From the NCBI GenBank assembly GCA_965198225.1, contig CBDAOY010000007.1, forward strand, positions 64,001-128,000: a stretch of DNA of 64,000 nucleotides, read 5' to 3'. Below the pieces are notes generated by a model. The model was not told the origin of the DNA. It saw only the letters and a list, made by a program, of their open reading frames with translations, and searched no databases. The DNA comes from Terriglobia bacterium (GTDB lineage Bacteria; Acidobacteriota; Terriglobia; 20CM-2-55-15). Made by a program: the position numbers and the translations under genes. This document shows positions 15,983 through 19,912 of the stretch, one piece after another; within the stretch, counting starts at the first letter, position 1; each line of letters opens with the position of its first letter.

Positions 15983-16076
15983 GCGTGCAGGTTGACTTCG
16001 CAATTGCGCGAGGTCCGGCGAGTTGGAGGAGAGCCCCTCCCGCTCGACGCCTGAACGGGCTGAAGAGGGTACAGAC

Positions 16077-16946
16077 ATGTCATCGTTCCAGAAGGTCCTG
16101 TTCCCGACCGACTTCTCGAAGGGCGCCGATAACGCCTTTCGACACGCGCTCCGCCTGGCGAACATCCAGAACGGTGAGGTGATCGTCCAGCATGTCGTGA
16201 GCAGCTACTTCGAGAAACATTCCCACTGGGCGACCCTGTTCGACATCCACGAGATGCAGAAGTACATGGACATGTACGTCGAGACCGAGATGGCTGGGGT
16301 CGTACCGGAAGAGATCAAGGGCGATCTCAAGTTCCGCAACGTGATCTCGGAAGGGAAGCCGGCGCAACAGATCGCCGAGTTGGCCGATAAGGAGCGGGTG
16401 GACGTCATCGTCATGGGGCCTACCCGGGGAGTGGTGACCGGCCCGGTGATTCGGGGAACCAACCGCCCGGTACTGGCGGTGCCTCACAACGGTAACGGCG
16501 TGGAGCCACTCCGTAAGATTTCGAAGATCCTCGTCACGACGGATTTTTCAGGACACTCGAAGAAGGTTGTCGACTATGCTTTCGAGCTGAAGAAGCTCTT
16601 CGACTGTGAGATCTACCTGCTGTATGTCGTCGAGCTTACGAATGCGATCAGGTTCGGTATCAAGCAGGGTTACTTCACTGACGCAACGGCGAAGATGAAG
16701 AAGTGGGCCGAAGATCAGCTCGAGAATCTGACGCCACGTCAATATGTCCTGGATGAGACGGTTCACCGTGTGGTCGAGGAGGGTCCGGCCGCCGATCACA
16801 TCAAGGCATTCGCAGACGCCAACGATGTCGACATGGTCGTTCTCGGTGCGCACGGGTACGGACCTGTCCAGAAGCATTTCGTCGGCAAGACGACCGACAA
16901 GGTGCTGCTGGAGCTGGACCGACCGGTGCTGACGGTCAGGATCTAG
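16077..16946 (+). CDS. Tandem-domain universal stress protein
   Basis: KVLFPTDFS and KILVTTDFS USP starts; VVLGAHG...FVGKTTDKVL...RPVLTV. Confidence 0.93.
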   Translation: MSSFQKVLFPTDFSKGADNAFRHALRLANIQNGEVIVQHVVSSYFEKHSHWATLFDIHEMQKYMDMYVETEMAGVVPEEIKGDLKFRNVISEGKPAQQIAELADKERVDVIVMGPTRGVVTGPVIRGTNRPVLAVPHNGNGVEPLRKISKILVTTDFSGHSKKVVDYAFELKKLFDCEIYLLYVVELTNAIRFGIKQGYFTDATAKMKKWAEDQLENLTPRQYVLDETVHRVVEEGPAADHIKAFADANDVDMVVLGAHGYGPVQKHFVGKTTDKVLLELDRPVLTVRI

Positions 16947-16947
16947 G

Positions 16948-16975
16948 AAAAAGCCCGCCGCAAGGCGGGCTTTTT
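16948..16975 (+). terminator. Rho-independent terminator (group IIC intron target)
   Basis: AAAAAGCCCGCC-GCAA-GGCGGGCTTTTT directly after the usp stop and 5 nt before the intron start. Confidence 0.92.
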
Positions 16976-17383
16976 GGTTGGTGCGCCAGGCATGGCGCGC
17001 AGCGCCATGAATTGGCGCTGGATAACCGGGGAGCGAAAGCGAACCGGGAAGTGACTAGGAGGTGAGAGTCCTCTGGGGGCCTTGATGACAGGAACCCTTA
17101 GCCGATGTGGCAACTGCGTCCGAGCAATCGGGGGTGGGAAGGAAGCCATAGGCAAAACTCTGGCCCGAGGCACACGAACCGCATAAGAGGCAGGCGTCAG
17201 GTGGGCGAAGAGGCCAACAGATCGGAAGCCCAATGTCATCCGGACCGGGCGTTTGTAGATGCGGCGGGTAGATGGAGTGAAAGTCACGTGCCTTACCCTG
17301 GGAGATCCGTTGTCTTGCTGGGAACAGCTAGAGTCGTCGAGAGGCGGCGCGATGGGGCGGCGGAAGTCAGCCACGGTCATAGT

Positions 17384-18254
17384 GCGTGCCTGGCAGCACG
17401 CGTTTCCGGCGGGTTAAAGTCCCGCTCGGCCCGAGGCCACGGGTCGATATCCAACAAGTGGGGGTAATGCCTCACTGGCCGGAGTGTAGGCAGGATGGCA
17501 GATGCCTCAAGGCAGAGCTGCCACCTACGGAAACTTTGGAGGGCAGGGCGCCCACCGCGAGGTGGGGTCTGAAGGGCATGAGGAGAACCACCGGGTCGTA
17601 ATCGAAGGGAGCATCCCGAGGATGAACCGGTCGGCCAAAGATGGGGAATGGTCGAGCCCGCACTATGGGGGCGAAGGCGCATTTGGTTCCACCCCATCGC
17701 ACCAAGGTGTGTGCGGGCGACACGGTGGAGAAGAGACGCGAGTGACCCAGGGAGGCCTGGTATCGTCCGGGCGGAAGGTAAGGTCGAGATGATGTGGCAC
17801 CCGCAGACGAAAGGGCGGGCAACCGAGAAGACAAACATCGACCTAGAGCCCCGCATGGATATAAGCGTAGAGCGAAATTCCGGCCGACGCGGTGTCAGGA
17901 ATCGGATCGGGGAATGGAGCCAGTACTCAGGAACGAGACGGCAAACATAAGGTCTCGGATCGTTGCTTCGAGCAGCGGCGCTGGCGGTCCAAAAGCCGTT
18001 CGTTGGAGGGGGAAGTCCCCGTACTCAGTCGTCGAATGTGCGAGCGATGCGAGGAAACGCGGAGATATCGTGAACTTGGATAGTTCCCTTAGCGAAAGAC
18101 CCAAACGCGGTACGAACGAAGCCGCCACCTGCCGCCACACAGCGAATTCCGAACGAGGAGCAACTGAGGAAAGCGGCTTGCGGGAAAACCGCACGAGCCG
18201 TTTGATTGAGCGGACGGTGGAAGGGCCGATCGGCCCGACCACTTTCGACTCTAC
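17384..18254 (+). mobile_element. ORF-less group II (IIB-like) intron nested in the ribozyme of the IIC intron
   Basis: 5' GCGTG; EBS1 ACTATG (17662-17667) pairs with CATAGT (17378-17383); domain V AAGCGGCTTGCGGGAAAACCGCACGAGCCGTTT with AGC triad; domain VI ending CGACTCTAC. Removal restores GTCATAGT-AGCCCGG...GAAGGACC. Confidence 0.88.
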
Positions 18255-18314
18255 AGCCCGGCGGAGCCGGGGTGAAGGACCACACATGGAGAAGAGACCG
18301 ACACGGAGCGTTCG

Positions 18315-19712
18315 ATGCGAAACGGAGACGCAGACAAGAGGGCTGAGAAGCCGGAACCGAACCGGAAGGATAGCGGCGGAACCGTGACAGATACGGATGA
18401 GGGGCGTCAAACTCGCACGGCACGTCACGAGCAAGTCGGGATCGAGGAGGGAATGCTACTGGAGAAGGTGCTGGAACGGGAAAACGTTCTGGCCGCATAC
18501 CGACGCGTCAAGGCCAATAGCGGGGCGGCGGGAATCGACGGGATGACCGTTGAGGACCTGATGCCGCACTGTCAGATGCACTGGACGCGAGTCCGTCAAG
18601 AACTGCTCGACGAGACGTACCGCCCCCAACCGGTGAGGAAAGTCGATATTCTGAAACCGGACGGAGGGATACGGACGCTGGGCATTCCGACCGTGATGGA
18701 CCGGATGATTCAACAGGCTCTGCTTCAGGTTCTCCAACCCCTATGGGATCGGACGTTCTCGGAAGATAGCTACGGCTACCGACCGGGACGAAGCGCCCAA
18801 AAGGCGGTGGTGCGTGCCCGGGAACACATTCGAGCCGGACATCGCTGGGTGGTGGACCTGGACATCGAGAAGTTCTTTGATCGCGTCAACCATGACGTGC
18901 TGATGGCACGCGTGGCGCGACGAATCAAAGACAAACGGGTGCTTCGATTGATTCGGCGCTATCTACAGGCCGGACTGATGGAGGGCGGGCTGGTGTCGCC
19001 CCGGGCAGAAGGGACGCCGCAAGGCGGCCCCCTCTCGCCTCTGCTGTCGAACCTGTTGCTGGATGAACTGGATCGGGAGTTGGGGAAACGTGGGCACCGC
19101 TTCGTTCGTTATGCCGACGATGTGAATGTGTACATTCGCTCCGAGGCAGCGGGTCAGCGGGTCATGGCATCGCTGGAATGTTTTCTGGACAGGAGACTCC
19201 GGCTGAAGGTGAACCGGGCCAAAAGCGCCGTGGCGCGGCCGTGGAAGCGAAAGTTCCTCGGGTACAGTTTCACGGCGCATCGCGAGGCCAAACTGAAGGT
19301 TTCGGATTCGTCGTTAAAACGACTGAAAATGAGACTTCGGGAGATCACGCGAGCCGGGCGAGGCCGAAGCCTCGCTCGCACGATCGGAACACTCATTCCC
19401 ATCATTCGGGGTTGGGTGGCTTACTATCGCTTGGCGGAGGTTCGAGGCAGCTTCGAGCGACTGGATCAGTGGTTGCGCCGCCGGCTGCGGTCGATCTTGT
19501 GGCAGCAGTGGAAGCGGAACCGAACACGATTCCGGGAACTCACTCGACGCGGTATTGCGACCGCTCGGGCTCGGACCTCGGTTTCCAACGGGCGCGGGCC
19601 TTGGTGGAATGCGGGCGCCAGCCATATGAATCAGGCTGTCCCCGCCTCTGCCTTCCGTCGCCTGGGTTTGCAATCCTTCTCCGAGGTGCATTCCCGACTT
19701 CAATCTTTATGA
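18315..19712 (+). CDS. ltrA: Group II intron reverse transcriptase/maturase (no endonuclease domain)
   Basis: AAGIDGMT, RTLGIPTVMDRMIQQA, SYGYRPGRS, VVDLDIEKFFD, GTPQGGPLSPLL, FVRYADD, IRGWVAYY. Alternative start at 18452. Confidence 0.97.
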   Translation: MRNGDADKRAEKPEPNRKDSGGTVTDTDEGRQTRTARHEQVGIEEGMLLEKVLERENVLAAYRRVKANSGAAGIDGMTVEDLMPHCQMHWTRVRQELLDETYRPQPVRKVDILKPDGGIRTLGIPTVMDRMIQQALLQVLQPLWDRTFSEDSYGYRPGRSAQKAVVRAREHIRAGHRWVVDLDIEKFFDRVNHDVLMARVARRIKDKRVLRLIRRYLQAGLMEGGLVSPRAEGTPQGGPLSPLLSNLLLDELDRELGKRGHRFVRYADDVNVYIRSEAAGQRVMASLECFLDRRLRLKVNRAKSAVARPWKRKFLGYSFTAHREAKLKVSDSSLKRLKMRLREITRAGRGRSLARTIGTLIPIIRGWVAYYRLAEVRGSFERLDQWLRRRLRSILWQQWKRNRTRFRELTRRGIATARARTSVSNGRGPWWNAGASHMNQAVPASAFRRLGLQSFSEVHSRLQSL

Positions 19713-19777
19713 ACCGCCGTATACGGAACCGTACGTACGGTGGTGTGGGAGGCGGGCGTTAAGCCCGCCTACCCGAT

Positions 19778-19862
19778 TCAGTAGTCAGTTGTCGGGATCG
19801 GGAGCTGGCACACCGCCCATTTCCTCAAACTGGCAACTGGCAACTGATAACTGACAACTGAT
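19778..19862. repeat. Heptamer-periodic palindromic repeat interrupted by the IIC intron
   Basis: tcagtag tcagttg ... aaactgg caactgg caactga taactga caactga. Joining the exons gives GTTG|TCAGTAGTCAGTTGTC, the reverse complement of the repeat at ~7690. Confidence 0.7.
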
Positions 19863-19912
19863 TTCTGATATCCTCCGCCTGATAGGGTTCTTGGTGGAGG
19901 TTCTTAGACTTC

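Follow-up and report, generated by a model that had tools for sequence, protein, structure and literature searches.

A group II intron without an open reading frame inside a class C intron, and the recurrence of its insertion site in domain III of other group II introns

A group II intron without a reverse transcriptase (RT) gene was found inside another group II intron of a Terriglobia bacterium. Here 'window' refers to the whole stretch of DNA that was analysed, 64,000 nucleotides (nt) of contig CBDAOY010000007.1 (assembly GCA_965198225.1, positions 64,001 to 128,000 of the forward strand); the source genome (G000) has 6.4 Mb in nine contigs. At the locus, a Usp-family open reading frame (ORF) is followed by a GC-rich hairpin with a T-run and by an outer intron of class C (IIC), which has its own RT/maturase ORF and is split by the inner intron (Table 1). 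Domains I to VI of the introns are written D1 to D6, and a slash in a motif marks the insertion point. An original prediction, made from the letters alone, was that the inner intron may be a non-autonomous specialist that targets other group II introns.

Table 1. Features of the locus, in window positions.
Feature	Position	Strand	Remarks
Usp-family ORF	16023-16946	+	307 aa
GC-rich hairpin and T-run 3' of the Usp-family ORF	16948-16980	+	insertion site of the outer intron
Outer IIC-type intron, whole	16981-19777	+	split by the inner intron
Outer intron, 5' segment	16981-17383	+	D1, D2 and, of the D3 internal loop, the 5' half; starts GTGCG
Intron-binding site 1 (IBS1) of the inner intron, CATAGT	17378-17383	+	conserved CAUAGU of host D3; empty sites read CATAGT/A
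Inner ORF-less group II intron	17384-18254	+	871 nt; insert relative to seven empty host copies
ACCG, candidate exon-binding site 2 (EBS2)	17626-17629	+	complements CGGT 17374-17377 at the window site only
Exon-binding site 1 (EBS1), ACTATG	17662-17667	+	in D1 hairpin loop; 6/6 Watson-Crick pairs with CATAGT 17378-17383
Inner intron's own D3 motif	17909-17931	+	private 6-nt insertion GGAGCC (11-copy alignment)
D4 remnant in inner intron	18061-18153	+	from sibling comparison
Shine-Dalgarno-like GGAGA	18061-18065	+
GTG start of the lost RT ORF	18070-18072	+	25 codons kept
8-nt filler ATTCCGAA at deletion junction	18146-18153	+	replaces about 1.28 kb
Inner D5 and D6	18169-18254	+	AGC triad 18172-18174; bulged A 18248
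Outer intron, 3' segment	18255-19777	+	remaining D3, D4 with ORF, D5/D6
Outer RT/maturase ORF	18315-19712	+	465 aa; Pfam RVT_1 and GIIM
Outer D5/D6	19712-19777	+	RF00029, 45.3 bits

Comparison with the other host copies confirmed exact boundaries for the ORF-less group II intron at 17384-18254 and its place inside another intron. The outer intron has eight copies in G000, and the seven others are empty, reading uninterrupted ...GGTCATAGT/AGCCCGG..., where the window copy has 871 nt in between. Over the 150 nt to either side of the insertion, these seven, the empty sites that the original prediction had called for, match the window copy at 100% identity. The register of the insertion is unambiguous, from GCGTGCC... 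at 17384 to ...CTCTAC at 18254. Precise insertion is also seen from uninterrupted copies of the inner intron's family, which are empty self-sites, and from three related empty hosts of the T5 type described below.

The inner intron has the ends and the catalytic hairpins of a group II ribozyme. Group II introns begin with 5' GUGYG and end with 3' AY; this one begins with GCGTG, agreeing at four of the five positions (C at position 2), and ends with CTAC. Its D5/D6 scores 36.9 bits with RF00029 (gathering score 40; E 6.5e-5 in a 3.2-kb search) and folds at -46.4 kcal/mol (z -6.4) into the canonical hairpin of D5 and a D6 in which an A bulges out 7 nt before the end. D1 gave a weak Rfam match at 17551-17657, and the class signal is a weak RF02001 match of 24.7 bits. 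None of the eight ORFs tested that lie wholly or partly in the insert, on either strand, matched an RT or any other Pfam family, so the intron is non-autonomous, as had been predicted.

The insertion point is in the D3 internal loop of the host, with CAUAGU before it and A after it. On an empty host copy, the Rfam D2-D3 model RF01998 scores 41.6 bits with the consensus ...AGAAgUCAGCAGAgGcCAUAGUAgcc...ggcGAAGGgC, in which CAUAGUA is capitalised; the match spans the D2 hairpin, junction J2/3 and D3, corresponding to window 17328 onward. The supposition that a CATAGTA-like motif is widely conserved around D2 and D3 of bacterial group II introns is thus borne out by the model itself. The filled copy scores 19 bits, as the inner intron splits the RF01998 region of the outer ribozyme and makes the pair a twintron.

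Recognition of the site can be followed across the family. BLAST gave 35 family segments in G000, including the window's own, and these contain 20 5' junctions, of which 18 end with (A/G)TAGT and one with GTAAT, the remaining one being ambiguous. All 21 3' junctions are followed by A. Pairing between EBS1 and IBS1 is 6/6 at 14 of the 5' junctions and 5/6 at five, and one copy has a damaged loop. The loop reads ACTATG in all three copies that follow CATAGT (C at position -6) and in both ORF-containing copies, and ACTATT in copies that follow AATAGT (perfect pairing) or GATAGT (through a G-U pair). The three self-sites with an intact loop, which have A at -6, all carry ACTATT.

The loop thus co-varies with the target at position -6 within G000, and it does so at -2, -5 and -6 in relatives from other genomes. 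In the same hairpin the relatives show EBS1/target pairs of AGTATG/CATACT, ACTACG/CGTAGT and ACTACA/TGTAGT, each with six Watson-Crick pairs, and further forms that fit their own targets are CCAAAG after CTTTGG, and ACCATG. The junctions of two loci (L116, L125) were placed by homology of the intron start, and their pairings were read from alignments on that basis. At another (L109 in genome G142) the register is ambiguous by 2 nt, giving 4/6 pairs, or 6/6 if shifted, and this locus enters the D3 count by host context only. Because compensatory changes occur both in copies and in relatives, the predicted recognition of CATAGT by EBS1 is well supported.

The EBS2 of the original prediction fared differently. 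ACCG and CGGT are both present and pair at the window site, yet the four letters before IBS1 in the other nine G000 contexts are GGCT, CGCT, GCGT, ATGG, GCCC, ACCC, GGGG, GAGC and AGCT, none of which gives a full fit. ACCGG is constant in every aligned copy, and only the damaged copy E9Y lacks the A before it. Since the contexts differ while ACCGG is invariant, the pairing is supported at the window site only, and ACCG/CGGT was rejected as a general EBS2.

Two observations in the recognition data hint at co-evolution of element and host. Three empty relatives of the T5 host, about 90% identical (C6:296454-296753, C8:79023-79321 and C5:569794-570092), read CATACT, which mismatches both EBS1 forms, whereas the filled T5 host reads CATAGT. 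In genome G364, a relative with EBS1 AGTATG occupies the CATACT site of a host matched by RF02005.

The contexts in G000 are mostly other group II introns, as the predicted flank check required, many copies following (N)(A/G)TAGT inside them. Of the ten distinct 5' contexts, eight fall in D3, either of another group II intron (RF01999, RF02001 or RF02005) or of the family itself, and seven have an Rfam host D1 directly upstream. These hosts are the IIC intron (RF02001); a B-type intron (RF02005) with a 458-codon RT reading frame; T5 and T6 (RF02005); T4 (RF02001), whose RT is 39% identical to the IIC RT; and T3 and T7 (RF01999). For T10 (C6:408309-410069) only the 3' junction was counted. A fragmentary ORF-containing copy of the family lies in a host of RF02003 type. 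In the self-context, four loci have a copy inserted in another copy exactly at GGGGAATAGT/ACTCAGG (AATAGT/ACTC), which makes three levels, host, copy X and copy Y. By comparison, G000 contains 142 unoccupied CATAGTA and 1672 unoccupied N(A/G)TAGTA sites. As introns make up only about 1-2% of its DNA (a rough estimate from RT matches), the bias toward D3 is far above what a short motif would give.

Relatives in other genomes use the same position. A protein search of 300 genomes of the class with the RT of an ORF-containing sibling (described below) found relatives at 93% identity in G170 and 55% in G142, and partial ones at 50-57% in G290, G214, G032, G262 and G105. A DNA search of 400 genomes with the first 417 nt, at most two candidates being scored per genome so that the counts of relatives are a sample, gave matches in 19 genomes besides G000. 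A host D1 model directly upstream together with the D3 motif at the junction was found at nine loci in eight other genomes: hosts of RF02005 in G136, G364, G372 and G360, of RF02001 in G282 and G312, and of RF02003 in G080, with two loci in G142 (RF02003; RF02001 and RF01998). At two more loci (G294, G312) the motif is present and the contig edge is reached. The relatives after CATAGT begin with GTGTG or GTGCG, and the G000 family with GCGTG.

Taken together, we consider it probable that 17384-18254 is a non-autonomous, ORF-less member of an endonuclease-less clade whose usual homing site is the D3 motif (C/G/A)(A/G)UAGU/A of other group II introns. Three groups of observations weigh against this reading: where some copies sit, how the ORF-less form may have spread, and the state of the window copy. 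They are taken in turn.

Some copies sit outside introns. One nest in G000 lies antisense near the 3' end of an ORF for a membrane protein with a MASE9 domain, and the ambiguous 5' junction (T9, C5:3834) adjoins a Mutator-family transposase and has flanks that match different places. Three of the five copies in G170, a sister genome, full-length and with 93% identical DNA, are at CGTAGT/A without a host-intron model; of these three, one sits within an amino-acid permease gene, whose frame continues across the junction, and another where an arylsulfotransferase gene has its 5' end. The 3' flank of a fourth G170 copy is like that of the T4 host. A further eight loci in five genomes (two in G272, three in G032, one each in G262, G290 and G040) have no recognisable host model upstream. 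Furthermore, seven of the eight IIC sites, each with a perfect CATAGT/A, are empty, no empty copy of the B-type host was found in the G000 assembly, and many filled host copies may be duplicates of a single event, as at least six B-type loci have identical 150-nt flanks around the element. No common IBS2 is visible upstream of the other family sites in G000.

These observations could mean that there is no specialisation, the short motif of six base pairs and an A being used anywhere, while insertions into introns are harmless and multiply with their hosts in an intron-rich genome. We regard this as rather unlikely. At least seven host lineages in G000 are filled at the homologous D3 position against the 1672 empty sites, and the same position is used in the eight other genomes, where the relatives' RT is about 55% identical when seen. 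EBS1 moreover tracks the D3 variants CATACT, CGTAGT and TGTAGT of the hosts, without drift to unrelated targets. The predicted specialisation on group II introns therefore stands as the use of the D3 motif as homing site, across four Rfam host families and in other genomes. It does not stand as an exclusive habit: homologs do occur at non-intron sites, which goes part of the way to the refutation that the original prediction had named.

From its distribution, the family's habit looks like that of a parasite of parasites rather than a one-off accident. A wider proposal is that the clade, autonomous and ORF-less members alike, is a hyperparasite of group II introns by way of the D3 motif and gates the host ribozyme in an arms race, in which hosts would change the motif and EBS1 would follow. 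This wider proposal is tentative, and in our estimate possible rather than probable. The specialisation that had been predicted for a satellite is not a trait of the ORF-less form alone; the clade as a whole has it, RT-encoding members as well.

The ORF-less form can be traced to RT-encoding siblings, for which the original prediction had suggested a search. Two ORF-containing siblings are present in G000 (C6:343788-345941 and C5:501714-503866), with a 479-codon open frame at the place of the ORF-less gap. The frame has RVT_1 and GIIM in Pfam without an endonuclease domain, and read from the GTG after GGAGA its protein has 441 aa. Ten undamaged copies of the 11 aligned ORF-less copies share the same deletion junction, E9Y having deletions there. 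As we read it, this alignment traces the aligned ORF-less copies, now in at least eight contexts, back to a single deletion of the ORF, and one such loss with its subsequent spread would require mobilisation in trans. The spread could instead be gene conversion of ORF-containing insertions by recombination, as T4 holds one copy of each kind with identical flanks; this route appears less economical. ORF-less forms seem to recur in the clade, since a relative's own D5 lies about 770-1050 nt from its 5' end at five loci in three genomes (G312, G272 and G282).

The cognate RT of the siblings is the likely helper in trans, far likelier than the RT of the IIC host, as it is present in G000 and is only 40% identical to the IIC RT. 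Its active-site motif is WADD, which is also found in the ORF-containing copy of G170. The motif is probably functional there, because G170 has four full-length RT matches to the sibling RT and one partial match. That the host IIC RT/maturase splices and mobilises the inner intron across classes, one of the two sources of a maturase that had been predicted, is favoured by proximity alone, an intact RT ORF adjoining the inner intron. Maturases bind their own D4. The family has copies in hosts of at least four RT types and in ORF-less hosts, and the cognate RT has two open copies at hand. In assays on Thermosynechococcus elongatus, help in trans came from closely related intron-encoded proteins (IEPs) (PMC2882425). 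We consider the cross-class route very improbable; the other predicted source, a related intron elsewhere, agrees with the two siblings.

The window copy itself is the most divergent of the 11 full-length copies aligned, at 97-98.6% identity over ungapped columns. About 10 indels separate it from its nearest copy, and 11 substitutions are private to it, whereas among most of the other ORF-less copies the identity is 99-100%, and BLAST found no near-identical donor for it in G000. It may no longer be active. The indels include the loss of 32 nt in a D1 hairpin and of 9 nt in a small D2 hairpin, and the gain of 6 nt in its own D3; the family self-target AATAGT/A is lost because of this last insertion, GGAGCC. 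The nearest relative is the T5 copy, which also has ACTATG. The window copy also lacks 4 nt in D1 (17500-17525) where the others read GGAGCCAG, and GGAGCCAG now stands at D3 (17915-17921) by way of GGAGCC, which may be a coincidence or a template switch.

Sequencing runs add to the picture. Among the runs that contain the window are four metatranscriptomes with the label sponge metagenome, and contigs of three metatranscriptome runs (X12-X14) and of X1, a run of unknown kind, were compared with L005, a B-type host in which the family has one copy. Only X1 showed the exact excision joint (1500 to 2405 in L005), in a single contig whose shorter side has 35 letters, so an empty B-type site probably exists as DNA in the X1 sample. 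No such joint was seen in the contigs of the RNA runs, which cannot show absence. These contigs cover the family, and their loose ends equal the IIC host flanks on both sides of the element, so a twintron of the window type is present unspliced in the RNA libraries, which may include DNA. The window's own joint is uninformative in contigs because seven empty DNA copies give the identical sequence.

It is therefore conceivable that the window copy is a dead relic, a single insertion that has decayed, no longer splices and has disabled this IIC copy. The divergence, the missing donor and the two unspliced junctions in RNA-library contigs speak for it, while the 5' end, EBS1 loop, D5, D6 and branch A are intact and, as the alignment is read, the larger deletions only trim peripheral hairpins. 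The window copy occupies the sole filled site of the eight IIC sites, and the identity of its host parts with the empty copies fits a recent invasion, or a master twintron that yields empty copies once the inner intron has spliced. On balance the relic is a possibility to be taken seriously, though it falls short of being probable.

For a clade that homes to D3, the following course can be proposed. The twintron would be transcribed together with its host, and the siblings' 441-aa RT/maturase would bind the retained D4 stub and aid folding and splicing of the inner intron. Excision would rejoin CAUAGU-A and restore host D3, so that the host ribozyme would act only afterwards. The lariat ribonucleoprotein would then reverse-splice into DNA carrying the motif and, as the RT has no endonuclease domain, its cDNA would be primed at replication forks, which is how endonuclease-less introns are described to proceed (PMC4424553). 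In many classes, the family among them, every new intron copy would be a fresh neutral target, giving nests, and recombination between nested copies would give chimeras and deletions.

Entry could also take place at the RNA level, the inner intron reverse-splicing into host intron RNA and the composite being copied to DNA when the host retrohomes. This would explain the bias for introns without DNA recognition beyond IBS1, and the filled IIC copy has a genomic locus to itself, which is what a newly retrohomed composite would show. On the other hand, the host ribozyme would need to remain active for reverse splicing despite the 871 nt in its D3, and non-intron sites exist. We hold this route to be quite unlikely.

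Signs of recombination between copies were found in G000. Flanks of T3 on the 5' side are combined with flanks of B on the 3' side, T6 and T7 have a common 3' flank with different 5' flanks, and the family form [1-871][542-871] also exists without its first part. In G020, another sequence, presumably the native one, is the 3' partner of the T3 5' flank. Incidentally, a 910-nt copy in G020, which is of another genus, is 100% identical to one in G000 (L041:1500-2409 and C6:1004373-1005282), and G020 also has the same three-level nest (L049), pointing to recent transfer or to cross-binning of repeat contigs. A head-to-tail arrangement, in which the 3' end (D6) of a relative is directly followed by the 5' end of another copy, occurs at L050:778-900 (G032:C65), and it is also seen as a loose end in run X14 at L005:2404.

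Deeper nests may exist. At four loci the B-type host (RF02005 D1) starts within about 20 nt after D5/D6 of an E-type intron (C6:839700-839830, which is L008:478-790; C5:812405-812535; and, on the minus strand, C5:760080-760230 and C5:606825-606975). No canonical GTGCG start lies between them, so these nests may be four-deep, or B may be fused to E. In two E-type introns (C5:608229-610052 and C5:744720-746543), an unrelated insert of about 1.54 kb lies at the D3 hairpin or beside it, where other E-type copies have about 70 nt; the insert may be another element that lands in D3.

The outer intron by itself is an ordinary class C intron. Its D1 matches RF02001 at 17118-17292 with 114.9 bits. All eight copies in G000 lie directly 3' of a GC-rich hairpin and T-run, the 3' end being identical in the other copies examined and the downstream flank different for each. 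The hairpin at 16948-16980 also turns up among terminator-like Rfam partial matches. Insertion after a hairpin and T-run is the habit of class C introns (PMC4424553), which the outer intron resembles in this and in its short RT without endonuclease domain, starting about 60 nt 3' of the inner insertion; nothing about it is unusual apart from the inner intron in one copy. Two of the empty copies (C5:716610-718806 and C7:1071691-1073691) have internal duplications, with query 1316-1628 present twice and an overlap at 2268-2333. About 50 nt past the 3' end of the outer intron, at 19829-19870, there are about six tandem 7-nt units (AACTGGC or AACTGAT-like).

Homing of introns into introns has precedents. 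The study of Methanosarcina by Dai and Zimmerly (2003) reportedly deals, by its title, with homing into the ORFs of related introns. By that title the target there is an ORF of a related intron, whereas here it is a conserved D3 motif of the ribozyme core, and the hosts here, unlike those in Methanosarcina, are of four Rfam D1-D4 families, with RTs 35-40% identical, besides the family itself. In Methanosarcina acetivorans, up to five introns are nested, with repeated site-specific homing into group II introns and deletions by homologous recombination (PMC4424553). That system is alike in having ORF-less and RT-encoding members, repeated homing, deep nests and deletions by recombination, with no host gene affected.

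ORF-less introns of T. elongatus insert between two start codons of the ORF of a related intron, whose IEP splices and mobilises them (PMC2882425). Among them, TeI3 (family F3), found in TeI4, is like the present intron in its ORF deletion, in a conserved site within introns and in its occurrence elsewhere as well (Mohr et al. 2010, PMC2882425). For TeI3, splicing and mobility in trans by a related IEP were shown by assay, while here we infer mobility. Its target is in the host RT ORF in D4 of close relatives; here the site is the D3 loop, not the ORF or D4, in hosts of different classes (RF01999, RF02001, RF02003 and RF02005). In a twintron of Trichodesmium, the inner intron lies in D1 of its host (Pfreundt and Hess 2015, PMC4649490). 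It likewise interrupts the host ribozyme, so that sequential splicing is needed, but it encodes an IEP and is described at one locus, whereas the family here has many copies and a recurrent D3 site.

A full-text search of the literature, with supplementary figures outside its scope, found no description of an intron that targets D3. Homing of introns into introns was already known, though only into the ORF of a related intron or at single loci, and what appears to be new is a conserved target in the ribozyme core that is common to several intron classes. Annotation pipelines that expect D1-D4 at a fixed distance from D5, a stated limitation of one such approach (PMC8919778), miss hosts that are split by inner introns.

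The target motif occurs in several intron classes, which lets a single lineage of retroelements parasitise many others, and every intron that a genome gains becomes a landing site. Ribozymes come to be nested three deep, and they must be removed in order. The family thereby offers a natural system for sequential ribozyme folding, for maturases acting in trans and for co-evolution among selfish RNAs, as EBS1 is set against the D3 variants of its hosts.

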